In this document: positions 2,376 through 59,700 of the stretch, one piece after another
How positions within the stretch are numbered: the first letter of the stretch is position 1
Layout: every line of letters starts with the position of its first letter
Assembly (NCBI GenBank): GCA_000004985.1
Contig: GG738878.1
Strand: one strand, 5' to 3'
DNA: 64,000 bases
DNA from: Naegleria gruberi
Taxonomy: Eukaryota
The notes under the pieces: generated by a model
The model's database searches: none
What the model saw: the letters and a program-made list of their open reading frames with translations, nothing else
What the model was told of the DNA's origin: nothing
Made by a program: the position numbers and the translations under genes

Positions 2376-3710
2376 TTATCCTGAAGCACCCTTCAAACCA
2401 CTTTCCAAATGATCAGCTTCACGATTTCTTCTAGTAGAATATTTATCACCAAAGTTTCTCAAATTATTAACCATTCCCTTATAATCATTCTTAGTCAATT
2501 GACCAAAAAATCCAGGAGTGGCCTTCTTAATACTTCCATATTGATGTTGGACACTGTAAGCAACTGATTGGACAGATGATGGCAAATCCTTGAAATTCTT
2601 GACAGCATTTGGATTTTTGGCAGCAGCTGCTTCATAATCTTTGGCCAAGGAGGCAAGTGACTTGTCCATAACTGCCTTATCAATGGCTTTAGCTTCAGCA
2701 GGTGATAGGGATAATGGATTCTTTGATAGGAAATTCTTGGCAGCTTGTTGTTTCAAACCAGTATATGGAGAAAGTTTATCGACTAAACTAGGTGAAAGTC
2801 CAAGAGATTTCAAACCCTTAACATTTTGTTGTCCAATATCGAAACCAGTACCAACAGTAACACCTGATTTACCAACGACAGTACCTGACTTGGATTGTGG
2901 AACGTAACCCTTAGTAGAGAATGCTTCATTCTTAGTAAGTAAACCCTTATCAATCTTGTAACCAGAAACAGTTGCAACAGAAGCAGCAGCAGGTTGTTGA
3001 GCTAGAGCTCTATTTTTGACAGATGTTTGAATGGCAGCAGCTGTCAACTTTCCAGTGACTGCAGGTTGAGCAGCAAAAGCAGCATTAAAACGAGCAGTTA
3101 ATGAATTGACACGTGGACCCTTAACATTCACAGCAGCAGCCTTAGCCATAGCAGAGAATGCCTTTGCCATATTTGGACCAACTAATCCAGTAAATGCCTT
3201 ACTCAATGTAGGACTAACTTTTGAGAATTTACTGGTAATTGAGTTGGCTAATTTGGAAAGAGAAGCACGAGCTTGAGCTGCTTTGAGACCTGCAGTACGA
3301 GTTCTACCTGCCATTCTACCTGCAAGACCCTTATTTGATTTGGTTGATTTGGAAGATGGTCCAGATCGTCCAGTTTTACCTGATGATCTACCATTGGATT
3401 TACCACCACTGGATCTTCCATTGGATCTACCTGATCTACCTGATCTACCTGATTGACCACTGGATCTTCCACCTCTGGAACCTCCTCTGCTACCAGAGCT
3501 ACCTCCACGGCTACCACCACCTCTGGAACCACCAGAACCTCCACGACCACCACCAGAACCACCGCCACCGCCACCGCCACTGGAACCACCCTTGTAAGAA
3601 TCTGCCAATTCGACAATTTCTGCCAAGAAGGAAGAGGATGCGGAAACTGCAATGATGGACACGGAAAGAATGGCCAAACAACACAAGATTGTGAATGAGA
3701 GTTTCTTCAT
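2376..3710 (-). CDS. secreted protein with a Gly/Ser/Arg-rich low-complexity region and a C-terminal phage-type (GH24) lysozyme-like domain
   Basis: A 444-aa ORF with an N-terminal signal peptide (MKKLSFTILCCLAILSVSIIAVSA) and an (RGG/SGG)n tract. The last ~190 aa resemble lambdoid and P21-type phage lysozymes. Examples are E..GYVP...SGVTVGTGFDIG against EG.SYIPYKD.VGVWTVCHGHTG, and NDYKGMVNNLRNFG...STRRNREADH against GDIKGACDQLRRW...TRREIERE. It is a paralog of 12966-14267. Confidence 0.7.
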   Translation of the reverse strand: MKKLSFTILCCLAILSVSIIAVSASSSFLAEIVELADSYKGGSSGGGGGGGSGGGRGGSGGSRGGGSRGGSSGSRGGSRGGRSSGQSGRSGRSGRSNGRSSGGKSNGRSSGKTGRSGPSSKSTKSNKGLAGRMAGRTRTAGLKAAQARASLSKLANSITSKFSKVSPTLSKAFTGLVGPNMAKAFSAMAKAAAVNVKGPRVNSLTARFNAAFAAQPAVTGKLTAAAIQTSVKNRALAQQPAAASVATVSGYKIDKGLLTKNEAFSTKGYVPQSKSGTVVGKSGVTVGTGFDIGQQNVKGLKSLGLSPSLVDKLSPYTGLKQQAAKNFLSKNPLSLSPAEAKAIDKAVMDKSLASLAKDYEAAAAKNPNAVKNFKDLPSSVQSVAYSVQHQYGSIKKATPGFFGQLTKNDYKGMVNNLRNFGDKYSTRRNREADHLESGLKGASG

Positions 3711-12965: not shown

Positions 12966-14267
12966 ATGAAAACATCTCTCTTGGTTTTATGCACCTTGAT
13001 GGTACTCTGTGTATCCATTATGGCTGTGTCTGGCTCCTTCTTGGAACAAATTGTGGAAATGTCACTTTCTGATTCTAGAAGTTTCAAGTCGGGTGGTGGT
13101 AGCTCTGGAGGAGGTAGCAAATCTGGAAGCAGTAGCAGCAGCTCTGGAAAGTCATCCAGTAAGTCATCCTCATCCTCCAGTAAGAGTACTAGCTCTAGTA
13201 AAACCTCCACTTCAAAGAGTTATAGCAAGTCAACTGTCTCATCAAAGATGGCCTCAGCTTATTCTCAATATGCTAACAGTAGAATTGCTGGTATGAAGAA
13301 TCCAGCCAGCACCATGGCTGGTCTCAAAGCTGCCAATTTGAATGCTCGTTTAAGTGCTCAACCAACTGCTACTGTCAATGGTAAATTGACTGCTGCTGGT
13401 ATCAAGGCCTCTTATCAAAATCGATTGAATACAAGAGTTGCTGCTGCCTATCAACAATATGCTCAATCCAGAATGGCTGCTGCCAAACCAACTGCTAAGC
13501 CAACCAATATTGCTGCAGCTTATCAACAATACGCCCAATCTAGAATTGCTGGTATGAAGAATCCTGCTAGCACTTTGTCTAAACCAACTGCCAAACCTGC
13601 CAATATTGCTGCTGCCTATCAACAATATGCTCAGTCCAGAATTGCTGGTTTGAAGAATCCTGCCAGTACTCTCCCAGGTAGTTTCAAGATTGATAAGGGT
13701 TTGCTTACTGTTAATGAAGGTAAACCTGCCACTACTGGTTACGTTCCACAATCCAAGGCAGGTACTGTCATTGGTAAATCAGGTGTTACTGTTGGTACTG
13801 GATTCGATGTTGGTCAACAAAATGTTAAGGGTTTGAAAGCTCTTGGACTTTCACCAAGTTTAGTCGACAAGCTTTCTCCATACACTGGATTGAAGCAACA
13901 AGCAGCTAAGGACTTTTTGGCTAAGAATCCATTGTCCCTATCGCCTGCTGAAGTTGCATCCATTGATAAGGCAGTTATGGACAAGTTTTCTGCCAATTTG
14001 GCCAAAGATTATGCAGCTGCTGCTGCCAAGAATCCAACTGCTGTCAAGAATTTCAAGGATTTGCCAGCTCCTGTCCAATCAGTTGCTTACAGTGTCTACC
14101 ATCAATATGGAAGCTTCTCCAAGACTCCAAGCTTCATGAACAAGTTGGCCACCAATGATTACAATGGAATGGTTCATGAATTGAGAAACTTTGGTGATTC
14201 TTACTCAACAAGAAGAAATCGTGAAGCTGATCATTTGGAAAGTGGTTTGAAGGCTGCTTCAGGATAA
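12966..14267 (+). CDS. secreted protein with a Ser/Lys-rich region, 3x internal repeats and a C-terminal GH24 lysozyme-like domain (paralog of 2376-3710)
   Basis: A 433-aa ORF with signal peptide MKTSLLVLCTLMVLCVSIMAVSG. It has poly-S/K low complexity and three tandem copies of about AAAYQQYAQSRIAG(M/L)KNPASTL..KPTAKP. From FKIDKGLLT onward the C-terminal ~190 aa are about 75% identical to the other copy. They include the ...YSTRRNREADHLESGLK tail. Confidence 0.7.
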   Translation: MKTSLLVLCTLMVLCVSIMAVSGSFLEQIVEMSLSDSRSFKSGGGSSGGGSKSGSSSSSSGKSSSKSSSSSSKSTSSSKTSTSKSYSKSTVSSKMASAYSQYANSRIAGMKNPASTMAGLKAANLNARLSAQPTATVNGKLTAAGIKASYQNRLNTRVAAAYQQYAQSRMAAAKPTAKPTNIAAAYQQYAQSRIAGMKNPASTLSKPTAKPANIAAAYQQYAQSRIAGLKNPASTLPGSFKIDKGLLTVNEGKPATTGYVPQSKAGTVIGKSGVTVGTGFDVGQQNVKGLKALGLSPSLVDKLSPYTGLKQQAAKDFLAKNPLSLSPAEVASIDKAVMDKFSANLAKDYAAAAAKNPTAVKNFKDLPAPVQSVAYSVYHQYGSFSKTPSFMNKLATNDYNGMVHELRNFGDSYSTRRNREADHLESGLKAASG

Positions 14268-14363: not shown

Positions 14364-16191
14364 TTAAAATCTCTTCCTCCTAATCAATTCAACCACCTCA
14401 CTCATAAATTCCCTATCCTTGATGAGTTCTGGAGAAATAGATGTTAGAGAGCTGATTCCATGTATATTGAACAAATTCTCATCATGTTCCAACGCTGTGA
14501 GAACCACTTCCTTGTCCCTCTTAATTCTCTCATCGAACAATTGCAACAATGGGCCACTAATGGCTACAACTTGCAATGCAAATGATTTGTTGTGAAATAG
14601 TCCAGGTTGGAATAGCTTGAGTTTGAAAAGAGAGAAGGGATTTGACTTGCAAGCTTCGATAATCATATCAAAATCATCCTTGAATTTGGTCTTGTGAAGA
14701 AGATAGCCATTCTTTCTGATAGCTTCCAAGACGAAATCTCTGTTACCTGTTAGATCTGGGTGCAGGTAGCAATTTTCAGAATCTTTGGATCCAATCGAAT
14801 CAAGTACGAATTCCTTATTGAGTTGGAATGATTCGTGTGCGTATTCAAGTGCAGAGCTGTTCTGTTTCACTGCTGTTCGAATAATTTCCTCGTCCATCTT
14901 TAAATCATCACTAGCAAATTGTAAATCAGAACCTCTTCTTGCAACAGCTGTTAATACAATCTCTCTATCGCAGCGAAACCCTTCTGGTGTTACTGAGAGT
15001 GACATTCCATTCCTAACAAGGTTCATCACAACATTCCTATTCTTCATTAAAGAATCATTTATACCCTTCAAAGAGGTAATTTTGAAATTATCTAAACAAT
15101 GGTTAATAAACTCCTCGTCCTGTTTTAAATCTTTTGAAATGAAAGGAAATGCTTCCAAACTATTATTCATGGCTTCCAAAGCTATGACCTTATCTGATTT
15201 TAGAGATTGAGAAGCAAACTTTAACGATCCACCATTAGACTTAACTGCCTCTAAAACAATCTCCCTATCACTCCTTAACAGATCACTTGCATGATTCAAG
15301 TCATTTCCACAAGCTCTGACACATTTCAATACCAAATCTCTGTCCTCTCTGGCATCATCATTAAAGTAATCCAAACATCCACTTAATTCTACTCCAATAC
15401 ATGCTTCCATCACTTCCCTATCAGAGAAAACCTCAAATGGTAATTGATTAAGAGCAATCTTTGTTCCTTTCAAGGCTTCCAAAATCACAAATTTATCATT
15501 TTGCAAATCATCATCCAGCATTATGTAATTTCTAAAGTTATTCCTCACAGCTGTCAATATTAATTCTCTATCACTAACCAACAATTCATCACTGATATAC
15601 TCTGTAATAGAATGGCCAGTTTGAGCTGCAACCATCAACAATTCCCTATCATTGGAAATTAATTCGGAATAATCTTGCTCTTCTTCATCAGTGCGATGAG
15701 AGGATGGCAACGATTCCAAATAATTAAGCAATATATTAATACTCAAACCTCGCCTAATAGCTTGCAAGAATAATTCTCTACTACTTGGTGTTGTATTCAT
15801 CAAATAATCTTCATACAAGACACTTAATTTAGAGAGAAACTTTTCCGATTTGAAACACAATACATCATCATTACCTTCATCACTTGTCTGCATTGTAGAA
15901 TAATAGCTTGCACCAAAAATCAAAGGATTCCTTGATAAATTCATCATCCAAATAATCAAAGCAATCTAAATTGATGGTGGTAATGGCTTGAATAATCTTC
16001 TCTCGATCGGAAATGAATTTTACAAGTGATGGATATGAAGAAAGAGTTTTTAAGAGTTTGTTTTCGAGAATTTCAGTTTGATATTTGAATTGCAGTAAAT
16101 CTGAGGTTGATGATTGGAAATGATCGAGTAAAATTACGACTAGATGTTCCTTCATTTTTTTTGTCTTTTCAATATATTGATTTAGATGCAT
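14364..16191 (-). CDS. DUF4116-repeat protein; two overlapping ORFs joined by a frameshift
   Basis: The main ORF is 14364..15959, 531 aa. It has many DUF4116-type repeats (SDREIVLEAVKSNGGSLKFASQSLKSDKVIALEAM; GSDLQFASDDLKMDEEIIRTAVKQNSSALEYA). An upstream ORF at 15880..16191 (MHLNQYIEK...SDREKIIQAITT...) overlaps it in another frame. The frame switch falls at a T5 run (gatttttggtg). I read this as one gene with an indel, or a pseudogene. Confidence 0.6.
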
Positions 16192-16285: not shown

Positions 16286-16359
16286 GCGCCGTTAGATCAG
16301 TTGGTTAGATCGTCAGCTTTACACGCTGAAGGTCAAGGGTTCGACTCCCTTACGGCGTA
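16286..16359 (+). tRNA. tRNA-Val (anticodon UAC)
   Basis: The sequence folds by hand into a cloverleaf. The acceptor stem is GCGCCGT/ACGGCGT with a G1-U72 wobble. U8 is present. The D-arm is GATC-AGTTGGTTA-GATC with G18G19. The anticodon arm is TCAGC-TTTACAC-GCTGA, with U33, anticodon TAC and A37. The variable loop is AGGTC. The T-arm is AAGGG-TTCGACT-CCCTT with a TTCGA T-loop. The discriminator is A. No CCA is encoded and there is no intron. Confidence 0.85.
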
Positions 16360-16495: not shown

Positions 16496-17815
16496 ATGAA
16501 GGAAATTATTCCCCTCTGTTTTGGACAATGTGGTATCAATATTGGCTCTGATTTTATTCAACAAATCTACAGGGAACATTTTTTCCCTTCCAAATCTTCA
16601 TCCTCATCAATTCATGATCGGAATGCTAATTATAATGAAAATGATGAATTGATGATGAATACAATGAGAGGAGAAGCCTCTATTTACTTTTCCGAATCAT
16701 CCAATAGTACATTCACCTCTCGGGGTCTTTTAATTGATTTACAAAGCCAATTTAAATATCAATCTAAATTGTTGAATAATGATGAAATACAAAATACAAT
16801 TGATTTGAATAATAATGTAATATTTCCAAGACAGAATGGTGTGTATTGCTCTCCAGATTGGCCAGGTGGTAAATATGAATCCGGAGCTGATTTATTTACC
16901 AATGATGTGATGGATCGAGTGAGGAAATTATTGGAGGATTGTGATTCGTTTCATGGATTTCAGTTTTTTCATGGGATGGTTGGATCTTCGAGTGGTTTCT
17001 ACTCGAGAATTTGTGCACATTTGAGAGAGGAGTATCCTGATAAGATGTTTTGGTCATGTAGTGTATTTCATGATTCCAAGAGTGAGGATAAAGCAGTGTG
17101 GATGTATGATTCCATATTGACCTTTCAGTACATGATGGAGCTCAATGATATGATTACCTGTGTGAGGAATAGTGAGCTAATTGATAAATGTGTACAGAAT
17201 GGAAAGGATTATCCAACTTATAGAGATTATAATAATGTGATTAGAAGCTTCTTTCCAAACATTACATCAGTTTTTAGGTATCCTTCTCAACAAGGATGTG
17301 ATTTGAGGAAAATGTGTCTCAATCTTGCACCTACCAGACACTGCTTGATTGAAGTTAGTGAAACTACTGCTTTACAAAATGAGACAACACCTATTTATGA
17401 AACAATTTATAATTTGAATAGTCAATTGATTCAACAAAAGAGTTCAGAGAAGATCCTTTCTGCCATTTCAATATTGAGAGCTAGTGGAACATTGGGCTTG
17501 GAAGCAGAAAGAAACCTTCGGAAATCAGTCAAAGATCATTCACAATCAGAATTTCCATTCAAACCCCTTGTTGTGAATCAACAATCAAGCGATAACACGA
17601 TCAGCAATACATTGCTTACCAACTCTTCATCAATTACCACGGCTCTGGAAAATATTTATGAAGTAACAGAAAGATTTTTCAGAAGGAAAACTTTCATTTA
17701 TGGATACACAAGAGGAGGATTAGAGGAAATGGAAATTACTGAATCTCAGTATTATCTTCGAGAGGCTATTGATACTTATACAGAGAGCGAACCTAAAGAA
17801 GATGAACTTGCTTAA
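16496..17815 (+). CDS. divergent tubulin-superfamily protein
   Basis: A 439-aa ORF that aligns to tubulin along its length. The N-terminus reads [24 protein letters not shown], compared with tubulin MREIVHIQAGQCGNQIG. The block [55 protein letters not shown] aligns with tubulin ..[42 protein letters not shown] and the C-terminal [25 protein letters not shown] (tubulin [24 protein letters not shown]) also match. The GGGTGSG GTP loop is degenerate (GMVGSSSG). Confidence 0.75.
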   Translation: [439 protein letters not shown]

Positions 17816-25341: not shown

Positions 25342-27776
25342 NNNNNNNNNNNNNNNNNNNNNNNNNNNNNNNNNNNNNNNNNNNNNNNNNNNNNNNNNNN
25401 NNNNNNNNNNNNNNNNNNNNNNNNNNNNNNNNNNNNNNNNNNNNNNNNNNNNNNNNNNNNNNNNNNNNNNNNNNNNNNNNNNNNNNNNNNNNNNNNNNNN
25501 NNNNNNNNNNNNNNNNNNNNNNNNNNNNNNNNNNNNNNNNNNNNNNNNNNNNNNNNNNNNNNNNNNNNNNNNNNNNNNNNNNNNNNNNNNNNNNNNNNNN
25601 NNNNNNNNNNNNNNNNNNNNNNNNNNNNNNNNNNNNNNNNNNNNNNNNNNNNNNNNNNNNNNNNNNNNNNNNNNNNNNNNNNNNNNNNNNNNNNNNNNNN
25701 NNNNNNNNNNNNNNNNNNNNNNNNNNNNNNNNNNNNNNNNNNNNNNNNNNNNNNNNNNNNNNNNNNNNNNNNNNNNNNNNNNNNNNNNNNNNNNNNNNNN
25801 NNNNNNNNNNNNNNNNNNNNNNNNNNNNNNNNNNNNNNNNNNNNNNNNNNNNNNNNNNNNNNNNNNNNNNNNNNNNNNNNNNNNNNNNNNNNNNNNNNNN
25901 NNNNNNNNNNNNNNNNNNNNNNNNNNNNNNNNNNNNNNNNNNNNNNNNNNNNNNNNNNNNNNNNNNNNNNNNNNNNNNNNNNNNNNNNNNNNNNNNNNNN
26001 NNNNNNNNNNNNNNNNNNNNNNNNNNNNNNNNNNNNNNNNNNNNNNNNNNNNNNNNNNNNNNNNNNNNNNNNNNNNNNNNNNNNNNNNNNNNNNNNNNNN
26101 NNNNNNNNNNNNNNNNNNNNNNNNNNNNNNNNNNNNNNNNNNNNNNNNNNNNNNNNNNNNNNNNNNNNNNNNNNNNNNNNNNNNNNNNNNNNNNNNNNNN
26201 NNNNNNNNNNNNNNNNNNNNNNNNNNNNNNNNNNNNNNNNNNNNNNNNNNNNNNNNNNNNNNNNNNNNNNNNNNNNNNNNNNNNNNNNNNNNNNNNNNNN
26301 NNNNNNNNNNNNNNNNNNNNNNNNNNNNNNNNNNNNNNNNNNNNNNNNNNNNNNNNNNNNNNNNNNNNNNNNNNNNNNNNNNNNNNNNNNNNNNNNNNNN
26401 NNNNNNNNNNNNNNNNNNNNNNNNNNNNNNNNNNNNNNNNNNNNNNNNNNNNNNNNNNNNNNNNNNNNNNNNNNNNNNNNNNNNNNNNNNNNNNNNNNNN
26501 NNNNNNNNNNNNNNNNNNNNNNNNNNNNNNNNNNNNNNNNNNNNNNNNNNNNNNNNNNNNNNNNNNNNNNNNNNNNNNNNNNNNNNNNNNNNNNNNNNNN
26601 NNNNNNNNNNNNNNNNNNNNNNNNNNNNNNNNNNNNNNNNNNNNNNNNNNNNNNNNNNNNNNNNNNNNNNNNNNNNNNNNNNNNNNNNNNNNNNNNNNNN
26701 NNNNNNNNNNNNNNNNNNNNNNNNNNNNNNNNNNNNNNNNNNNNNNNNNNNNNNNNNNNNNNNNNNNNNNNNNNNNNNNNNNNNNNNNNNNNNNNNNNNN
26801 NNNNNNNNNNNNNNNNNNNNNNNNNNNNNNNNNNNNNNNNNNNNNNNNNNNNNNNNNNNNNNNNNNNNNNNNNNNNNNNNNNNNNNNNNNNNNNNNNNNN
26901 NNNNNNNNNNNNNNNNNNNNNNNNNNNNNNNNNNNNNNNNNNNNNNNNNNNNNNNNNNNNNNNNNNNNNNNNNNNNNNNNNNNNNNNNNNNNNNNNNNNN
27001 NNNNNNNNNNNNNNNNNNNNNNNNNNNNNNNNNNNNNNNNNNNNNNNNNNNNNNNNNNNNNNNNNNNNNNNNNNNNNNNNNNNNNNNNNNNNNNNNNNNN
27101 NNNNNNNNNNNNNNNNNNNNNNNNNNNNNNNNNNNNNNNNNNNNNNNNNNNNNNNNNNNNNNNNNNNNNNNNNNNNNNNNNNNNNNNNNNNNNNNNNNNN
27201 NNNNNNNNNNNNNNNNNNNNNNNNNNNNNNNNNNNNNNNNNNNNNNNNNNNNNNNNNNNNNNNNNNNNNNNNNNNNNNNNNNNNNNNNNNNNNNNNNNNN
27301 NNNNNNNNNNNNNNNNNNNNNNNNNNNNNNNNNNNNNNNNNNNNNNNNNNNNNNNNNNNNNNNNNNNNNNNNNNNNNNNNNNNNNNNNNNNNNNNNNNNN
27401 NNNNNNNNNNNNNNNNNNNNNNNNNNNNNNNNNNNNNNNNNNNNNNNNNNNNNNNNNNNNNNNNNNNNNNNNNNNNNNNNNNNNNNNNNNNNNNNNNNNN
27501 NNNNNNNNNNNNNNNNNNNNNNNNNNNNNNNNNNNNNNNNNNNNNNNNNNNNNNNNNNNNNNNNNNNNNNNNNNNNNNNNNNNNNNNNNNNNNNNNNNNN
27601 NNNNNNNNNNNNNNNNNNNNNNNNNNNNNNNNNNNNNNNNNNNNNNNNNNNNNNNNNNNNNNNNNNNNNNNNNNNNNNNNNNNNNNNNNNNNNNNNNNNN
27701 NNNNNNNNNNNNNNNNNNNNNNNNNNNNNNNNNNNNNNNNNNNNNNNNNNNNNNNNNNNNNNNNNNNNNNNNNNNN
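25342..27776. other. assembly gap (N run, 2435 nt)
   Basis: Contiguous N. The gap truncates NHL-BTB paralog 2 and breaks the ORF-track X-run ORFs. Confidence 1.
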
Positions 27777-29188
27777 AAAATGAATAATACATTCAATATA
27801 TCATATACTCTAAATGAATTCAATCTTTCAACCTCTGTAAAATGATATATATTTTCATATATCAATGAATCAATTAGTTTTTGTATAATTTCTATTTGTT
27901 GCGAATTCATTGATCTCAATAGTTTTTCATTTTTCAATATTATTTTACAAAATTGTGGTGATAATTTTTCTATTAATGGAATAAATCCAATCAAATTCAA
28001 TCCAAATAATTCATCTCTTGAATGTTTTTTCAATTGGATTTTTGGAATTATAGTATAATCATTTCCAATATGTGGATGCGATGAAAAATCAAATGGTGAA
28101 TCACCTCCAAATCCTTTTTCACCATTTCCAGCAATTGTTTCAATTGTTCCATCTTTCAATATTTTTCTAATTCGATGATTATTTGTATCAGCAATATAAA
28201 CTTCATCATTTTGAGAAACAAATATATTCTCTACATATGATATTTGTGCATTAATTGCAAGTCCTCCATCACCACTATATCCTTTAACTCCAGTTCCTGC
28301 AATTGTTGTAATATTGCCATTTCTTAATATTTTCCTAATTCTATAATTATAACTATCAGTAATATAAACTTCATTCGTTGATGAAACAAATACACCACAT
28401 GGATGGCTCAATTGTGCACTTGTTGCAGGTCCTCCATCACCTCCAAATCCTTGTTCACCAGTTCCTGCAATTGTTATAATTGTTCCATCTTGCAACATCT
28501 TTCTAATTCGATGACTCTTGTAATCTACAATATAAACTTCATCGTTATTAGAAACAAAAACACCACAAGGGGTGTTTAATTTTGCATTAATTGCAGGACC
28601 ACCATCTCCACTAAATCCTTGTTCACCAGTTCCTGCAATTGTTACAATAGTTCCATTTCTCAATATCTTTCTAATTCTATGATTTCTAAAATCAGAAAAA
28701 TAAACTTCATCATTTTGAGAAACGAATATATTATTTACAGCTGATATTTGTGCATTAATTGCAGGTCCTCCATCTCCACTATATCCTTCTTCTCCAGTTC
28801 CTGCAATTGTTACAATATTGCCATTTCTTAATATTTTTCTAATTCTATAATTTCCAAAATCAGAAATATAAACTTCATTCGTTGATGAAACAAATACATC
28901 ACATGGATGGTTAAATTGTGCACTTGTTGCAGGTCCACCATCACCACTGAATCCTTCTCCTTCTTCTTCTCCAATTCCTGCAATGGTGACTATGGTTCCA
29001 TCTTTTAATATTTTTCTCACCCGATGATTTAGGTTATCAGCAATATAAATTTCATCATTCGGAGCAACAAACACTCCTCCTGGACAATTTAACATTGCAT
29101 CGGTGGCCATCATCATTTTGGCTTTTTTAAATTTATTTTCATCAGCAACATTTTCGTCATTATTAGAGGAAGCAAGACTTCGTTTCAT
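27777..29188 (-). CDS. NHL-repeat + BTB protein, paralog 2 (3' part lost in the gap)
   Basis: The start is MKRSLASSNNDEN at 29188. NHL repeats and the linker follow, down to the gap edge. The DNA next to the gap (27777-27990) is nearly identical to paralog 1 at about 23862-24080. Confidence 0.7.
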
Positions 29189-29908: not shown

Positions 29909-32275
29909 ATGAAACGAAGTCTTGCTACTACACATTCATCGGAATCGAATAATGGAGAAAGTTGTGATGCTGCTAATGATGAAAATAAATTAAAAAAGGC
30001 TAAAATGATGATGGCCACCGATGCAATGCTAAATTGTCCAGTGGAGGTATTTGTTGCTCCGAATGATGAAATTTATATTGCTGATAGAGATAATCATCGG
30101 GTGAGAAAAATACTAAAAGATGGAACAATGGTAACCATTGCAGGATGGAGTTTTGGTGGTTTTGGTGGTGATGGTGGTCCTGCAACGAGTGCAATGTTGG
30201 ATTTTCCCACAAGTATTGCTGTTTCTTCAGATAATGAAGTGTATATTGCTGATTTGGGAATTTATAGAATTAGGAAAATATTAAGAAATGGTAATATTGT
30301 AACAATTGCTGGAACTGGAGAAGAAGGATTTAGTGGTGATGGAGGACCTGCAATTAATGCACAAATATCAGCTGTGTGGAATATTGCCCTTTCTCAAAAT
30401 AATGAATTGTATTTTGTTGACTATTCAAACTGTAGAATCAGGAAAATATTAAGAAATGGAACTATTGTAACAATTGCAGGAACTGGAGAAGACGGATTTA
30501 GTGGAGATGGTGGACTCGCAATCAATGCAAAACTTGGCTATCCTTGCAGTGTTTTTGTTTCCAAAGATGATGAGGTGTATATTGCTGATAGCCAAAATAA
30601 TAGGGTGAGAAAAATATTGAGAAATGGAATTATTAATACAATTGCAGGAACTGGAGAAGAAGGATTCAGTGGTGATGGTGGACCTGCAACAAATGCACAA
30701 TTGAACGTTCCATGTGGTGTATTTGTTTCAGCAACGAATGAAGTTTATATTGTGGATAGTGGAAATTGTAGAATTAGAAAAATATTGAGAAATGGAATTA
30801 TTAATACAATTGCAGGAACTGGAGAAGAAGGATATAGTGGTGATGGAGGACCTGCAATTAATGCACAAATATCAAATGTATACAATATATTCGTTTCTCA
30901 AAATGATGAAGTTTATATTGCCGATACAAATAATCACAGAATTAGAAAAATATTGAAAGATGGAACAATTGAAACAATTGCTGGAAATGGTGAAAAAGGA
31001 TTCAGTGGTGATTCACCATTTGATTTTTCATCGCATCCACACATTGGAAATGATTATACTATAATTCCAAAAATCCAATTGAAAAAACATTCAAGAGATG
31101 AATTATTTGGATTGGAATTGATTGGATTTATTCCATTAATAGAAAAGTTATCACCACAATTTTGTAAAATAATATTGAAAAATGAAAAACTATTGAAATC
31201 AATGAATTCGCAACAAATAGAAATTATTCAAAAACTAATTGATTCATTGATATATGAAAATGTATATCATTTTACAGAGATTGAAAGATTGAATTCATTT
31301 AAAGAATATGATATATTGAATGTATTATTCATTTTAGGAATGTTCAAGAATTGTGAATTTATTGATTTTAAAAGAGTATTTGTAAACGCATTTATTAATT
31401 CCATCACGCTGGAAACACTTCCTTCAAAATGGGAACAAAGTGAGAATTTACTCAAATTTTGTCAAGAAATAGAAGTTGAAAATTACATATTGGAATATTT
31501 GAATAATTATTGTTTGGAATATTCTGCCATTCAATTGAGAAATCCACAATCAGCAAAACATCTTAAAACTGCACCAATCATTATGAGAAATAGTCTGAAT
31601 ATTGTATTAATGTTGGAAGTAACAACGACAAGTCCAATGCAAATAGAAGACACTGAAATTAAACTACAAGGAATGGAATCACTATTTAATGATGAGAAGT
31701 CCAGTGATGTTAAAATCAAAATAAGCAAAGACCAATATTTATATTGTCACAAATCAATACTAAGCAGTTCGTGTATTTTTTTTAATGCATTATTCGAAAG
31801 TGGATCATCATTCAGTGATCTTAGTGATGATGTCTTTACACCTGATGAATCAGAAGATTTAGAATTATTGGAAATTAGTATCAAAAGTTGTTATGGGATT
31901 CCAATCCATAACTCTTTTAGTTTTATTAGATTAATAGATATAGCTTTGAAACATGAAAATCAATGCCTAATTTATCATTGCAAGAAAAACTTTTCACTAA
32001 CAATTGATAATTATTTCGAAAAAGCCTTAGAATGTGGAAAATATTTTCATTTAGATTGTTTTTCAAGTTTTTTTGATACTTTTTTGAGCTTTGGAACACG
32101 AAATTGTGAAAAACTCTTCACAGATTGTGCAAAAGTTGGTCAATTACCAGAGCAACTTCGCAATGCCTTAATCATCGACTTTACACTAGTGTTGAGCTTT
32201 TCCTCGAGACCTGCTCTCACTTGGAGATATCCGAATGTTTATTATGATGACCCTGAGTTTGGTGTTCGTTTTTAA
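29909..32275 (+). CDS. NHL-repeat + C-terminal BTB/POZ-like protein (paralog 3)
   Basis: A 788-aa intact ORF (MKRSLATTHSSESNN...) with the same architecture. It has seven NHL repeats, a conserved linker (SPFDFSSHPHIGNDYTIIPKIQLKKHSRDELFGL...) and a BTB-like domain (SDVKIKISKDQYLYCHKSILSSSCIFFNALFESGSSF). Confidence 0.8.
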   Translation: MKRSLATTHSSESNNGESCDAANDENKLKKAKMMMATDAMLNCPVEVFVAPNDEIYIADRDNHRVRKILKDGTMVTIAGWSFGGFGGDGGPATSAMLDFPTSIAVSSDNEVYIADLGIYRIRKILRNGNIVTIAGTGEEGFSGDGGPAINAQISAVWNIALSQNNELYFVDYSNCRIRKILRNGTIVTIAGTGEDGFSGDGGLAINAKLGYPCSVFVSKDDEVYIADSQNNRVRKILRNGIINTIAGTGEEGFSGDGGPATNAQLNVPCGVFVSATNEVYIVDSGNCRIRKILRNGIINTIAGTGEEGYSGDGGPAINAQISNVYNIFVSQNDEVYIADTNNHRIRKILKDGTIETIAGNGEKGFSGDSPFDFSSHPHIGNDYTIIPKIQLKKHSRDELFGLELIGFIPLIEKLSPQFCKIILKNEKLLKSMNSQQIEIIQKLIDSLIYENVYHFTEIERLNSFKEYDILNVLFILGMFKNCEFIDFKRVFVNAFINSITLETLPSKWEQSENLLKFCQEIEVENYILEYLNNYCLEYSAIQLRNPQSAKHLKTAPIIMRNSLNIVLMLEVTTTSPMQIEDTEIKLQGMESLFNDEKSSDVKIKISKDQYLYCHKSILSSSCIFFNALFESGSSFSDLSDDVFTPDESEDLELLEISIKSCYGIPIHNSFSFIRLIDIALKHENQCLIYHCKKNFSLTIDNYFEKALECGKYFHLDCFSSFFDTFLSFGTRNCEKLFTDCAKVGQLPEQLRNALIIDFTLVLSFSSRPALTWRYPNVYYDDPEFGVRF

Positions 32276-48592: not shown

Positions 48593-50265
48593 ATGCCACC
48601 AAACAACAAGGTTCGACCAGTCTCATCGAATACGACCACAACAACAGCATCGGAATCTAAATCTACTAAAGCATCATCGCCTCCTTCAACAAGTGCCTCA
48701 GTTAATAATCAACAAAATTCCTTGAATAATACAGTTGCATCAAATGCTGATACATCCTCTTCGTATACAACAACAACAAGATCTAATTATGATAACATGT
48801 CCGATTCGGGTGATGAGACTGGTATTAAAGTTGTGGTGAGAATGAGACCTTTCAATGATAGAGAAATGAAATTGAAAGCACAACCTTGTATAACAATAAC
48901 AAAAGCGAATAGAGAAGTTCTTATTAAGAGAAAAGACAAGGAAGATAAGAAATTCTATTTTGACGATGTGTTTGATGAGAATTCTACGCAACAGGAAGTT
49001 TATTCATCAACTGGTCAGAGAGTTTTAGATAGATATGTGTTAGGTTTTAATGTACGTATTAATTTGATGAGCAATTCTGAACTGTTTCAAAATATTTTAC
49101 ATATTTATTTCTGGATTAGGCTTGTATATTTGCGTATGGTCAAACTGGATCTGGTAAATCTGTAAGTAATCCATCTCTCTATTCAATGTGACAATTTAAA
49201 TAGTGGACAATGCAAGGTATGAAAGGAAATCAAGAAAAGGAAGGAATCATGTCAAGATTTGTCAGAGAATTGTTTGGATATGTGGAACGAGAAAAGGAAA
49301 AGACTGACATCACTATTAAGGCATCCTATTTGGAAATTTACAATGAAAATATTTTGGACTTGTTGAATCCTCATAGTGGAAGAGTGAGTTATGAAATAAG
49401 AGAAGACAAAGTGAAAGGAACATATATTACAAACCTTATTGAAAAACCAATCACGACAGATACTGAGCTGAATGAAATTTTGGATGAGGGTGCAACAAGG
49501 AGAACTGTTGGAGAAACAAAAATGAATCAAGAATCGTCCAGATCTCATGGTATTCTTCAAATTTGTATGGAACAGGTTGATAAGGGAGATGAGGATGGTT
49601 TCAGCTATAGATCCAATAAGATTTCACTCGTTGACTTGGCTGGTTCTGAAAGACAATCAGCTACTGAAGCAACAGGTGATAGATTGAAGGAAGGAGCTAA
49701 AATCAACTTGTCACTCTCCAACTTGGGTAATGTCATTAATGCACTTGTAAAGAAGACAAACTTTGTACCATATCGTAACTCCAAATTGACCAGATTATTG
49801 AAAGATTCAATTGGTGGTAACTCCTATACGTTGTTGGTTGTTTGTGTGAGTCCTGCCGATGTCAACGCTGAAGAATCATTGAGCACTCTGTATTTTGCTG
49901 ATAGGGCTAAACAAATCAAGAACAAACTCAAGGTTTCTAGAGGAGATCCTCGATTGGAAAAGATTGCAGAACTTCTCGAGATTGAAAAGCAATTGAGAGC
50001 TAGGGTTTTAGAACTGGAAACTGAATTATCGAAATATACCACTGTCCCTCCACCAGTGCAAAAGAGTCTTGCCACGAGTTCGACGGCGGTTGGTGAATCC
50101 ATTAGTGCTTCTCAATTTGCCAAAATTAAGAATGACATGAAGGGAGAATCAAAAATTGTACAAACTGATCCAGTTCAATTCGCGGATGGAAAAACATATG
50201 AACCCCTCGATATTGAAAATCCTCAACAACCACCAAAGAAGCAGGGTTGTTGTTGCATTCAATAA
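48593..50265 (+). CDS. kinesin-like motor protein, three exons
   Basis: Exon 1 is 48593..49051. Intron 1 is 49052..49119 (68 nt, GTACGT..TTAG). Exon 2 is 49120..49161 and encodes the P-loop ACIFAYGQTGSGKS. Intron 2 is 49162..49203 (42 nt, GTAAGT..ATAG). Exon 3 is 49204..50265. The motor motifs are IKVVVRMRPFNDRE, GQTGSGKSWTMQG, SSRSHGILQI (switch I), LVDLAGSER (switch II) and VPYRNSKLTRLLKDS. A short coiled coil follows. The C-terminus is ...KKQGCCCIQ. Confidence 0.85.
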
Positions 50266-53540: not shown

Positions 53541-54836
53541 NNNNNNNNNNNNNNNNNNNNNNNNNNNNNNNNNNNNNNNNNNNNNNNNNNNNNNNNNNNN
53601 NNNNNNNNNNNNNNNNNNNNNNNNNNNNNNNNNNNNNNNNNNNNNNNNNNNNNNNNNNNNNNNNNNNNNNNNNNNNNNNNNNNNNNNNNNNNNNNNNNNN
53701 NNNNNNNNNNNNNNNNNNNNNNNNNNNNNNNNNNNNNNNNNNNNNNNNNNNNNNNNNNNNNNNNNNNNNNNNNNNNNNNNNNNNNNNNNNNNNNNNNNNN
53801 NNNNNNNNNNNNNNNNNNNNNNNNNNNNNNNNNNNNNNNNNNNNNNNNNNNNNNNNNNNNNNNNNNNNNNNNNNNNNNNNNNNNNNNNNNNNNNNNNNNN
53901 NNNNNNNNNNNNNNNNNNNNNNNNNNNNNNNNNNNNNNNNNNNNNNNNNNNNNNNNNNNNNNNNNNNNNNNNNNNNNNNNNNNNNNNNNNNNNNNNNNNN
54001 NNNNNNNNNNNNNNNNNNNNNNNNNNNNNNNNNNNNNNNNNNNNNNNNNNNNNNNNNNNNNNNNNNNNNNNNNNNNNNNNNNNNNNNNNNNNNNNNNNNN
54101 NNNNNNNNNNNNNNNNNNNNNNNNNNNNNNNNNNNNNNNNNNNNNNNNNNNNNNNNNNNNNNNNNNNNNNNNNNNNNNNNNNNNNNNNNNNNNNNNNNNN
54201 NNNNNNNNNNNNNNNNNNNNNNNNNNNNNNNNNNNNNNNNNNNNNNNNNNNNNNNNNNNNNNNNNNNNNNNNNNNNNNNNNNNNNNNNNNNNNNNNNNNN
54301 NNNNNNNNNNNNNNNNNNNNNNNNNNNNNNNNNNNNNNNNNNNNNNNNNNNNNNNNNNNNNNNNNNNNNNNNNNNNNNNNNNNNNNNNNNNNNNNNNNNN
54401 NNNNNNNNNNNNNNNNNNNNNNNNNNNNNNNNNNNNNNNNNNNNNNNNNNNNNNNNNNNNNNNNNNNNNNNNNNNNNNNNNNNNNNNNNNNNNNNNNNNN
54501 NNNNNNNNNNNNNNNNNNNNNNNNNNNNNNNNNNNNNNNNNNNNNNNNNNNNNNNNNNNNNNNNNNNNNNNNNNNNNNNNNNNNNNNNNNNNNNNNNNNN
54601 NNNNNNNNNNNNNNNNNNNNNNNNNNNNNNNNNNNNNNNNNNNNNNNNNNNNNNNNNNNNNNNNNNNNNNNNNNNNNNNNNNNNNNNNNNNNNNNNNNNN
54701 NNNNNNNNNNNNNNNNNNNNNNNNNNNNNNNNNNNNNNNNNNNNNNNNNNNNNNNNNNNNNNNNNNNNNNNNNNNNNNNNNNNNNNNNNNNNNNNNNNNN
54801 NNNNNNNNNNNNNNNNNNNNNNNNNNNNNNNNNNNN
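53541..54836. other. assembly gap (N run, 1296 nt)
   Basis: Contiguous N. Confidence 1.
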
Positions 54837-55796: not shown

Positions 55797-56435
55797 NNNN
55801 NNNNNNNNNNNNNNNNNNNNNNNNNNNNNNNNNNNNNNNNNNNNNNAGTACATGAAATTGAATTCTATATCATTATAGATCATTTACATCATTTTGGTAA
55901 AGTTTCAATAGGTTTTCCTTTTTCAAGATTTCATCTTTTTGTCATAGTTGACCATATGATGATTGAGGGAAGAAATCTTTAAATATGAAAGTTAAAATAA
56001 ATTTGATATTCGATGTTTACTCATCAAATGGAACATTTTCATATTAGGATTCAATATGTTTTGATGAGAAACTCAAAAGTTATTGTTGACCTCTTTTACC
56101 TCACATCTCCCTTTTCACTCAATACTTTTATATCTACAGACATGAACTTTTGAAATTTCATATGAAAGTGATTATGAATGTTGTTAACGATGATATTGAC
56201 TATATAATCTTATTAAACGATTTTGAAATTATCATTCTTCCTATGGTTTCATTTTAACAATTTTAATCTGACATTATTTACAAAGTTAATATTTTATAAA
56301 TTGAAAAACTAAATATACTGCGTTGTTCTACTCATCATTTCCTATCGAATGATATAAAATTTAATGATATTTGAATAAGTTTATAATTTTGGGCTAGGGT
56401 TTGAAGGTTGGGTTTAGAAGAATTCTATTTTTAGT

Positions 56436-56728: not shown

Positions 56729-59700
56729 NNNNNNNNNNNNNNNNNNNNNNNNNNNNNNNNNNNNNNNNNNNNNNNNNNNNNNNNNNNNNNNNNNNNNNNN
56801 NNNNNNNNNNNNNNNNNNNNNNNNNNNNNNNNNNNNNNNNNNNNNNNNNNNNNNNNNNNNNNNNNNNNNNNNNNNNNNNNNNNNNNNNNNNNNNNNNNNN
56901 NNNNNNNNNNNNNNNNNNNNNNNNNNNNNNNNNNNNNNNNNNNNNNNNNNNNNNNNNNNNNNNNNNNNNNNNNNNNNNNNNNNNNNNNNNNNNNNNNNNN
57001 NNNNNNNNNNNNNNNNNNNNNNNNNNNNNNNNNNNNNNNNNNNNNNNNNNNNNNNNNNNNNNNNNNNNNNNNNNNNNNNNNNNNNNNNNNNNNNNNNNNN
57101 NNNNNNNNNNNNNNNNNNNNNNNNNNNNNNNNNNNNNNNNNNNNNNNNNNNNNNNNNNNNNNNNNNNNNNNNNNNNNNNNNNNNNNNNNNNNNNNNNNNN
57201 NNNNNNNNNNNNNNNNNNNNNNNNNNNNNNNNNNNNNNNNNNNNNNNNNNNNNNNNNNNNNNNNNNNNNNNNNNNNNNNNNNNNNNNNNNNNNNNNNNNN
57301 NNNNNNNNNNNNNNNNNNNNNNNNNNNNNNNNNNNNNNNNNNNNNNNNNNNNNNNNNNNNNNNNNNNNNNNNNNNNNNNNNNNNNNNNNNNNNNNNNNNN
57401 NNNNNNNNNNNNNNNNNNNNNNNNNNNNNNNNNNNNNNNNNNNNNNNNNNNNNNNNNNNNNNNNNNNNNNNNNNNNNNNNNNNNNNNNNNNNNNNNNNNN
57501 NNNNNNNNNNNNNNNNNNNNNNNNNNNNNNNNNNNNNNNNNNNNNNNNNNNNNNNNNNNNNNNNNNNNNNNNNNNNNNNNNNNNNNNNNNNNNNNNNNNN
57601 NNNNNNNNNNNNNNNNNNNNNNNNNNNNNNNNNNNNNNNNNNNNNNNNNNNNNNNNNNNNNNNNNNNNNNNNNNNNNNNNNNNNNNNNNNNNNNNNNNNN
57701 NNNNNNNNNNNNNNNNNNNNNNNNNNNNNNNNNNNNNNNNNNNNNNNNNNNNNNNNNNNNNNNNNNNNNNNNNNNNNNNNNNNNNNNNNNNNNNNNNNNN
57801 NNNNNNNNNNNNNNNNNNNNNNNNNNNNNNNNNNNNNNNNNNNNNNNNNNNNNNNNNNNNNNNNNNNNNNNNNNNNNNNNNNNNNNNNNNNNNNNNNNNN
57901 NNNNNNNNNNNNNNNNNNNNNNNNNNNNNNNNNNNNNNNNNNNNNNNNNNNNNNNNNNNNNNNNNNNNNNNNNNNNNNNNNNNNNNNNNNNNNNNNNNNN
58001 NNNNNNNNNNNNNNNNNNNNNNNNNNNNNNNNNNNNNNNNNNNNNNNNNNNNNNNNNNNNNNNNNNNNNNNNNNNNNNNNNNNNNNNNNNNNNNNNNNNN
58101 NNNNNNNNNNNNNNNNNNNNNNNNNNNNNNNNNNNNNNNNNNNNNNNNNNNNNNNNNNNNNNNNNNNNNNNNNNNNNNNNNNNNNNNNNNNNNNNNNNNN
58201 NNNNNNNNNNNNNNNNNNNNNNNNNNNNNNNNNNNNNNNNNNNNNNNNNNNNNNNNNNNNNNNNNNNNNNNNNNNNNNNNNNNNNNNNNNNNNNNNNNNN
58301 NNNNNNNNNNNNNNNNNNNNNNNNNNNNNNNNNNNNNNNNNNNNNNNNNNNNNNNNNNNNNNNNNNNNNNNNNNNNNNNNNNNNNNNNNNNNNNNNNNNN
58401 NNNNNNNNNNNNNNNNNNNNNNNNNNNNNNNNNNNNNNNNNNNNNNNNNNNNNNNNNNNNNNNNNNNNNNNNNNNNNNNNNNNNNNNNNNNNNNNNNNNN
58501 NNNNNNNNNNNNNNNNNNNNNNNNNNNNNNNNNNNNNNNNNNNNNNNNNNNNNNNNNNNNNNNNNNNNNNNNNNNNNNNNNNNNNNNNNNNNNNNNNNNN
58601 NNNNNNNNNNNNNNNNNNNNNNNNNNNNNNNNNNNNNNNNNNNNNNNNNNNNNNNNNNNNNNNNNNNNNNNNNNNNNNNNNNNNNNNNNNNNNNNNNNNN
58701 NNNNNNNNNNNNNNNNNNNNNNNNNNNNNNNNNNNNNNNNNNNNNNNNNNNNNNNNNNNNNNNNNNNNNNNNNNNNNNNNNNNNNNNNNNNNNNNNNNNN
58801 NNNNNNNNNNNNNNNNNNNNNNNNNNNNNNNNNNNNNNNNNNNNNNNNNNNNNNNNNNNNNNNNNNNNNNNNNNNNNNNNNNNNNNNNNNNNNNNNNNNN
58901 NNNNNNNNNNNNNNNNNNNNNNNNNNNNNNNNNNNNNNNNNNNNNNNNNNNNNNNNNNNNNNNNNNNNNNNNNNNNNNNNNNNNNNNNNNNNNNNNNNNN
59001 NNNNNNNNNNNNNNNNNNNNNNNNNNNNNNNNNNNNNNNNNNNNNNNNNNNNNNNNNNNNNNNNNNNNNNNNNNNNNNNNNNNNNNNNNNNNNNNNNNNN
59101 NNNNNNNNNNNNNNNNNNNNNNNNNNNNNNNNNNNNNNNNNNNNNNNNNNNNNNNNNNNNNNNNNNNNNNNNNNNNNNNNNNNNNNNNNNNNNNNNNNNN
59201 NNNNNNNNNNNNNNNNNNNNNNNNNNNNNNNNNNNNNNNNNNNNNNNNNNNNNNNNNNNNNNNNNNNNNNNNNNNNNNNNNNNNNNNNNNNNNNNNNNNN
59301 NNNNNNNNNNNNNNNNNNNNNNNNNNNNNNNNNNNNNNNNNNNNNNNNNNNNNNNNNNNNNNNNNNNNNNNNNNNNNNNNNNNNNNNNNNNNNNNNNNNN
59401 NNNNNNNNNNNNNNNNNNNNNNNNNNNNNNNNNNNNNNNNNNNNNNNNNNNNNNNNNNNNNNNNNNNNNNNNNNNNNNNNNNNNNNNNNNNNNNNNNNNN
59501 NNNNNNNNNNNNNNNNNNNNNNNNNNNNNNNNNNNNNNNNNNNNNNNNNNNNNNNNNNNNNNNNNNNNNNNNNNNNNNNNNNNNNNNNNNNNNNNNNNNN
59601 NNNNNNNNNNNNNNNNNNNNNNNNNNNNNNNNNNNNNNNNNNNNNNNNNNNNNNNNNNNNNNNNNNNNNNNNNNNNNNNNNNNNNNNNNNNNNNNNNNNN

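Follow-up and report, generated by a model that had tools for sequence, protein, structure and literature searches.

Previous work showed that Naegleria gruberi, a classic system for the multi-tubulin hypothesis in which flagellar and mitotic tubulins have been studied, has 13 alpha- and nine beta-tubulin genes, some of them highly divergent (PMC9036621). Fulton described a 'bonus' group of seven alpha and five beta tubulins, highly divergent and unlikely to assemble in view of their gaps and additions, and noted that gamma, delta and epsilon are each encoded by one conserved gene (PMC9081340). Findeisen et al. grouped divergent Naegleria tubulins with the 'theta/iota' tubulins of ciliates in a basal position to beta; in all their trees the group of ciliate and Naegleria sequences fell inside or basal to beta, and it was classed as beta (PMC4202323). 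Some Paramecium beta-tubulins have lost their P-loop, and a role as structural, non-polymerising units has been proposed for them (PMC4202323). Among the Tetrahymena beta-like tubulins BLT1-6, BLT1 and BLT4 retain the signature GGGTGSG and share 56-65% identity with canonical beta (Pucciarelli 2012, PMC3382179). Here we describe a gene at 16496-17815 (+) in a 64,000-nucleotide stretch of N. gruberi DNA (contig GG738878.1, assembly GCA_000004985.1; the whole stretch is called the window below). It is one of the 'highly divergent' tubulins already known from N. gruberi (PMC9081340, PMC9036621, PMC4202323), and it is the most divergent member of the N. gruberi beta-tubulin-like expansion.

It is very likely that the gene is a real, maintained, beta-derived and lineage-specific paralogue. 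The best overall explanation, which we consider probable, is a functional, maintained beta-like paralogue with impaired handling of guanosine triphosphate (GTP) that acts outside the microtubule lattice. The open reading frame (ORF) runs uninterrupted for 439 codons in an ORF scan of the 64-kb window. A search of 5.8 billion proteins returned as its counterpart 'beta-tubulin [Naegleria gruberi]' (XP_002675383.1 / EFC42639.1 / UniProt D2VKR7 / JGI 88212), a 100% match apart from the length of one serine run, which reads SKSSSIH in XP_002675383.1 and SKSSSSSIH, with two extra Ser, in the window protein. The window is therefore not identical to the sequence behind XP_002675383.1. This run, at 16598-16612, is SSSSS in the window and in a metagenome allele described below, and SSS in the database protein. 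Both the gene and its annotation as 'beta-tubulin' were public before, as was its position on a long branch, and the gene is ordinary in kind, being a divergent, already known paralogue whose function is uncharacterised. New here are the residue-level description, the exclusion of delta, epsilon and Misato identities, a confident fold model and a first hint of purifying selection. The plain annotation as 'beta-tubulin' overstates what the sequence supports. The gene is the extreme case among the extra divergent alpha- and beta-like genes of N. gruberi.

Relationship of the protein to beta-tubulin

A first-pass annotation of the window had aligned the protein to tubulin from the N- to the C-terminus, and this was found again in a phmmer search of the Protein Data Bank (PDB), where residues 1-431 matched beta-tubulin residues 1-425. 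The N-terminus, MKEII, is MREI-like, as had been noted. The Pfam Tubulin model (PF00091) matched residues 3-232 with 93.4 bits (E=2.9e-26). The top PDB match was yeast Tub2 (5w3f_B; 152 bits, E=2e-43), all 60 of the 60 PDB matches listed were beta chains, and identity to beta-tubulin was 25-27%; neither delta nor epsilon is represented by a chain in the PDB, which leaves no structural reference for these classes. Class references were taken from the alignments of Velle et al., with human gamma from the PDB, a named bee delta and named vertebrate epsilon sequences. The phmmer scores against these were 122-152 bits for beta, 55-98 for alpha, 68 for gamma, 48-51 for epsilon and 45-50 for delta. 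Beta was also the best class when residues 1-226, 227-395 and 380-439 were searched separately. Residues 380-439 scored 27.8 bits with beta versus 10.3 with alpha, and the H11-H12 region is thus clearly beta-like.

An exhaustive phmmer search of 1.84 billion cluster representatives gave, among its best 150, 148 beta-class and two gamma representatives. Class-specific positions, i.e., those invariant inside one class and missing from the others, were matched at 6 of 33 for beta, 1 of 36 for alpha, none of 46 for gamma and 6 of 126 for delta; the beta matches include R271 and K272, the R-K in loop T7. The protein is closest to, or derived from, beta-tubulin along its whole length. The earlier view that it is not a canonical alpha, beta or gamma tubulin was upheld, the Kimura distance between the protein and beta being 1.83 compared with 1.09 between alpha and beta and 1.31 between beta and gamma; delta lies about 2.2 from the other classes. 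The Pfam Tubulin_C model (PF03953) found no match in the protein at E<=1; it gives 150 bits with canonical beta and 67-93 bits with the remaining divergent beta-like proteins of N. gruberi.

The best full-length relative in the exhaustive search was the cluster of N. gruberi XP_002670151, with 31% identity and 153 bits. A neighbor-joining (NJ) tree was built from 94 sequences and 425 columns with 300 bootstrap replicates. Its backbone was star-like and only near-neighbours were identifiable; these were a Logan protein (47%), Stentor coeruleus OMJ71007 (23%) and, further, N. gruberi XP_002670151, XP_002673357 and XP_002671050, all named 'beta-tubulins'. The neighbours agree with the maximum-likelihood (ML) tree of Velle et al. 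and with Findeisen 2014. In the full ML tree of Velle et al. (Data S3) gene 88212 has a branch of 2.52 substitutions/site and is sister to divergent Oxytricha, Stylonychia and Paramecium sequences (84.1/0.996/91), with other divergent N. gruberi beta-like sequences adjoining it; the gene is absent from their pruned tree (Data S4). Homologues at 34%-90% identity were found in neither of the protein collections searched, and hence there is no recognisable orthologue beyond the N. gruberi complex.

The three N. gruberi neighbours (XP_002670151.1/D2W0C0, XP_002673357.1/D2VRJ5 and XP_002671050.1/D2VY59) are 'bonus' divergent tubulins (Fritz-Laylin 2010, Fulton 2022). They share with the present gene the genome and the annotation, beta-likeness over the full length and proximity in both the NJ and the published ML tree, as well as longer H1-S2 loops, atypical C-terminal tails and an altered T4 loop (GGGSGSG, GGGCGSG, IGGSGSG). 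These three proteins have 34-48% identity to canonical beta and retain 35-46 of the 55 universal tubulin positions, compared with about 26% and 28 of 55 here, and the present protein has far more degenerate T3, T4 and T5 loops and a 10-residue deletion in the M-loop. The ciliate set, comprising Tetrahymena BLT1-6, the Paramecium 'theta/iota' tubulins and the P-loop-less Paramecium betas (Pucciarelli 2012, PMC3382179; Findeisen 2014, PMC4202323), resembles it in being lineage-specific, fast-evolving derivatives of beta whose tails lack modification motifs, in substitutions that affect the GTP pocket, the M-loop and the interfaces, and in a published grouping with Naegleria sequences that is basal to beta. 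This grouping does not establish shared descent with the ciliate genes, and long-branch attraction is likely.

Nucleotide loops, contact loops and predicted fold

Kept and lost positions are given below in pig beta sequential numbering, and the coordinates of the segments are collected in Table 1. The first-pass annotation had reported that GGGTGSG is replaced, and indeed T4 reads V-GSSSG; the loop lacks one residue and retains three of the seven signature positions (G142, S145 and G146). Among the 94 aligned tubulins just one other has a more degenerate T4. E69 of T2 is changed to Gln; D67 is kept. T3 has YCSPDWPGG for GAGNNWAKG with a 4-residue insertion ahead of it, N99 being changed to Pro and the NN motif gone. 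T5 carries P171 to His, E181 to Trp, P182 to Met and N184 to Asp, with Y183 kept. Elsewhere N204, Y222 and N226 are kept and D203 is changed to Arg. In tubulin structures (e.g., PDB 1JFF) the kept residues D177, Y183, N204, Y222 and N226 include contacts to the ribose and the guanine. In T7, D249-L-R-K252 is kept; the R-K sites are T-E in alpha and I-G in gamma.

In all, the protein has lost 27 of the 55 positions that are invariant in the alpha, beta and gamma references, keeping 28, and 13 of the 27 losses fall within loops T1-T6. The losses number 22 in bee delta-tubulin and 9-20 in the other divergent beta-like proteins examined. The protein has thereby lost the Mg2+- and phosphate-holding residues in T2, T3, T4 and T5. 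The earlier claim of degenerate GTP-binding loops is thus borne out, and with such loops impaired GTP binding is plausible. The possibility that a hidden exon or mis-called intron would restore GGGTGSG, so that the degeneracy would be an artefact of the gene model, was rejected: the ORF is continuous, the motif [GAS]GG[TS]G[SAT]G is encoded in no frame across the 64-kb window, and the T4 loop is identical in the independent metagenome allele. A further cluster representative from outside the window, P0067, is beta-like with a T4 of AGYVGNF, more degenerate still; its best reference match is Naegleria mitotic beta (45% identity). The T4 of P0067 indicates that P-loop loss recurs among divergent beta-like proteins.

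The lateral contact between tubulins is made by two elements, the M-loop and the H1-S2 loop, and both are altered. The S7-H9 segment has 12 residues versus 21. An enlarged, Ser/Asn-rich loop does follow H1, as had been stated, but not with the 40-residue insertion that was proposed: the H1-S2 span is 52 residues versus 38 in pig beta, a net gain of about 14-16. Residues 28-62 of this loop cannot be aligned to canonical tubulins. Among the 94 aligned tubulins the M-loop is near the shortest and the H1-S2 loop near the longest. Towards the C-terminus W397 is changed to Gly and the S9 region is shortened, and the tail, SEPKEDELA, is short (9 residues), in agreement with the first-pass annotation; it is not an acidic tail open to modification by glutamylation and glycylation. 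Conservation is patterned, being found in T1, the end of H3 and S4, the H4-S5 core, T7-H8 and H11-H12.

An AlphaFold2 model built on a 74-sequence alignment had a predicted local distance difference test (pLDDT) score of 89.7 and a predicted template-modelling (pTM) score of 0.91, with low confidence (59-79) solely in the H1-S2 loop. The fold of the intermediate domain was predicted confidently despite the missing Tubulin_C match. When the model was compared with the PDB by Foldseek, the top 50 matches were beta chains throughout, with template-modelling (TM) scores of 0.81-0.88. The protein is accordingly predicted to adopt the tubulin fold.

Canonical betas are, for example, those of pig and yeast and the N. 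gruberi flagellar (83350) and mitotic (55748/55900) proteins. With these the divergent protein shares the fold at the TM scores just given, the length, the MREI-type N-terminus, the GQCG of T1, a T7 DLRK without the catalytic Glu (Lys stands where alpha has it) and the pattern FRRKxF...G..EME.TE in H11-H12. It differs from them in the change of E69 to Gln, the loss of the NN of T3, the V-GSSSG of T4, the changes of E181 to Trp and W397 to Gly, and the missing E-hook.

Selection on the gene and the explanations weighed

A syntenic allele was found on a 3,020-bp metagenome contig (ENA ERZ929261), with the tRNA-Val gene upstream and the glyoxalase gene downstream, as in the window. Seventeen sites distinguish the two coding sequences (CDS), with 9 synonymous changes and 8 that are non-synonymous; from these 17 differences only, in one allele pair, the non-synonymous rate (dN) is 0.0076, the synonymous rate (dS) 0.035 and dN/dS 0.22 (binomial test against neutrality, p=0.0025). 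Divergence between the alleles is 1.3% in the CDS versus 2.4-3.0% in flanking non-coding DNA, and the two indels between them are in frame and restricted to the Ser/Asn/His-rich loop. The metagenome allele has additional HHDR and N residues in the H1-S2 loop, which is thus a low-complexity stretch prone to indels within a gene that is otherwise constrained. Small as the sample is, it points to purifying selection on the divergent gene, and the dN/dS of 0.22 against a syntenic allele indicates that the gene is maintained.

How a maintained beta-like protein of this kind would act can be sketched. As beta does, it would sit on an alpha or alpha-like subunit, docked by the T7/H8 minus-end face. 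It has probably lost normal binding, exchange or sensing of GTP at its own site, and it probably does not make the canonical lateral lattice contacts. With the side-contact loop and a large part of the GTP-phosphate pocket lost, ordinary microtubule building is improbable, and abnormal GTP handling combined with the lack of canonical lattice contacts would suit a structural, capping or sequestering subunit, or a non-microtubule assembly, rather than an ordinary microtubule building block. This specific mechanism, impaired GTP handling with a role outside the lattice, is put forward tentatively. More speculative, and doubtful as it stands, is the proposal that the protein is a non-polymerising partner, cap or sequestering factor for a divergent alpha-like tubulin, held by purifying selection and specific to the N. 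gruberi lineage; if true, the tubulin fold would here serve a regulatory purpose so far undemonstrated for any beta-like tubulin. No alpha-like tubulin partner is encoded in the 64-kb window. If the gene is expressed, it offers a natural experiment on the tubulin fold without normal GTP handling or lattice contacts.

Several observations count against the preferred explanation, a maintained beta-derived paralogue with impaired GTP handling, besides the small number of allelic differences. Beta also tops the scores for true gamma, delta and epsilon queries, although its margin is then 1.1-1.3-fold, as against at least 1.6-fold for the divergent protein. Beta and the query were split from all alpha, gamma and delta sequences in only 86 of the 300 NJ replicates, and the long branch of the protein invites long-branch attraction. 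The kept base-contacting residues and parts of T1 and T4 would make some nucleotide binding possible. The counterpart XP_002675383.1 carries the tag 'LOW QUALITY PROTEIN' in one source, and its accessions are named in no paper of the searched literature. Exact-sequence look-ups of the window protein and of the database counterpart in the contig index gave no match, and hence no contig derived from RNA sequencing points to expression. Finally, Tetrahymena BLT1 and BLT4 have altered pockets and M-loops yet enter nuclear microtubules (PMC3382179).

The BLT precedent, in which tubulins whose tail motifs are missing enter macronuclear and micronuclear arrays (PMC3382179), also speaks for a true polymerising beta isotype that co-assembles with a divergent N. 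gruberi alpha-like tubulin in a specialised array. The kept T7 DLRK, H11-H12, Y222, N226 and N204 would fit such an isotype, as would the presence of 13 alpha and nine beta genes, some highly divergent, in one genome (PMC9036621). We think it rather unlikely, because the BLTs retain GGGTGSG and 56-65% identity whereas here identity is 26% and T3, T4 and T5 are rewritten, because of the 10-residue M-loop deletion and the polymorphic H1-S2 loop, 14-16 residues longer, and because the Naegleria mitotic tubulins have been assigned to other, far less divergent genes (PMC9036621). Extreme divergence could instead mean decay, i.e., a beta-tubulin duplicate under relaxed constraint, on its way to a pseudogene and functionless now. 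The 25-27% identity to beta, the loss of 27 of 55 universally invariant positions, the lack of any relative above 34% identity outside the N. gruberi complex among 15 billion proteins, the 'LOW QUALITY PROTEIN' label and Fulton's view that such paralogues are unlikely to assemble (PMC9081340) are all in keeping with this. Decay is unlikely, however, given an intact 439-codon ORF in an AT-rich (35% GC) genome, the significant synonymous excess (dN/dS 0.22, p=0.0025), a CDS that has diverged less than its flanks (1.3% versus 2.4-3.0%) with indels in frame only, a tubulin fold predicted with high confidence, and conservation that is patterned (T1, S4, H4-S5, T7-H8, H11-H12) and not uniformly eroded.

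The first-pass annotation had offered delta, epsilon, zeta or cryptic tubulin as possible identities. Delta and epsilon are rejected, at 45-51 bits against 122-152 for beta. The protein does resemble delta and epsilon in its comparable distance from alpha, beta and gamma and in lacking an acidic tail, and bee delta-tubulin likewise has no Pfam Tubulin_C match; bee delta, however, keeps AGGTGSG, and a true delta query matches PDB gamma about as well as beta, and beta over the N-domain only, whereas the divergent protein matches beta end to end. A separate ancient class that is not a beta derivative, whether one of those named or a 'cryptic' one shared with the ciliate theta/iota tubulins, would be consistent with the distance to beta (1.83, nearing the roughly 2.2 of delta to others), with the published grouping with divergent ciliate tubulins (84.1/0.996/91) and with the Stentor and environmental sisters in the NJ tree. 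It is nevertheless very unlikely: besides the scores, delta-specific positions are matched at only 6 of 126, conserved delta and epsilon genes are present separately in N. gruberi (PMC9081340), the beta-specific T7 and H11-H12 motifs are kept, Findeisen et al. put the ciliate and Naegleria group in or basal to beta (PMC4202323), and clustering of very long branches is an expected artefact. A Misato/DML1-type protein, which is of the tubulin superfamily and has a degenerate nucleotide signature, was suggested by a marginal match to Pfam Tubulin_3 (PF14881) over residues 127-199, at 33.4 bits slightly over the 30-bit cut-off, where canonical beta scores 14 bits. This identity is scarcely credible and was rejected, since the Misato segment II model (Misat_Tub_SegII, PF10644) has no match in the protein at E<=1 though canonical beta reaches 25 bits, the overlapping 93-bit Tubulin match is far stronger, and the protein has a beta-like architecture from end to end, the alignment including the beta-type C-terminal helix pair H11-H12.

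Other features of the window

The region is AT-rich, gene-dense and clearly eukaryotic. Genes near the tubulin-like gene include those for RPL15e, a GLOD4-like glyoxalase, an RGS protein, ABC transporters, a kinesin and a RhoGAP. The kinesin gene, 31 kb downstream, is the sole other cytoskeletal gene in the window.

Table 1. Coordinates of the tubulin-like gene, its segments and other features of the window
Feature	Position	Strand	Details
Divergent beta-tubulin-like CDS	16496..17815	+	ATG to TAA, intronless, 439 residues plus stop
T1 loop GQCGINIG	16523..16546	+	residues 10-17; G10, Q11, C12, G13 kept; N14 to Ile, Q15 to Asn
H1-S2 loop, enlarged, Ser/Asn-rich	16577..16681	+	residues 28-62; low model confidence; in-frame allele indels
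T3 region	16823..16873	+	residues 110-126; GQSGAGNNWAKGH replaced; 4-residue insertion; A97, N99, A102 lost
T4 signature loop	16970..17002	+	residues 159-169; G141 deleted, T143 to Ser, G144 to Ser
T5 loop and start of H5	17060..17113	+	residues 189-206; SVVPSPKVSDTVVEPYNA replaced; D177 kept
T7 loop and H8	17282..17335	+	residues 263-280; beta-type D-L-R-K; among the best-conserved stretches
S7-H9 (M-loop) region	17363..17389	+	residues 290-298; 10-residue deletion vs canonical alpha, beta, gamma
H11-H12 region	17675..17785	+	residues 394-430; clearly beta-like
C-terminal tail SEPKEDELA	17786..17812	+	9 residues; without poly-Glu E-hook
tRNA-Val (anticodon TAC)	16286-16359	+	136 bp upstream of the tubulin-like start codon
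Pesticin C-terminal domain (PF16754) gene	2376-3710	-	E=1e-70
Pesticin C-terminal domain (PF16754) gene, paralogue	12966-14267	+	E=7e-69
DUF4116 protein	14364-15959, with ORF 15880-16191	-	eight repeats; E=2e-84
Kinesin motor domain, two ORFs	48593-49165 and 49210-50265	+	Pfam positions 1-78 and 92-327
NHL-repeat gene	28000-29188	-	beside the first gap
NHL-repeat gene	29909-32275	+	beside the first gap
N runs (scaffold gaps)	25342-27776, 53541-54836, 55797-55846, 56729-62006		four runs, 9,059 bases

The tRNA-Val gene is 100% identical in the metagenome allele, while the spacer around it differs by about 3%. The N runs give rise to spurious long 'ORFs' in the mechanical ORF list. Two further gene models in Table 1 appear to be split: the kinesin ORFs are most simply read as two exons flanking a short intron, and the DUF4116 gene has a long ORF started by TTG, while the ORF that overlaps it upstream points to a first exon followed by a short intron. 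The domain PF16754, found in two genes of the window, is a phage-lysozyme-like bacterial toxin domain that is unusual in a eukaryote; the pair may have arisen by horizontal acquisition followed by duplication.

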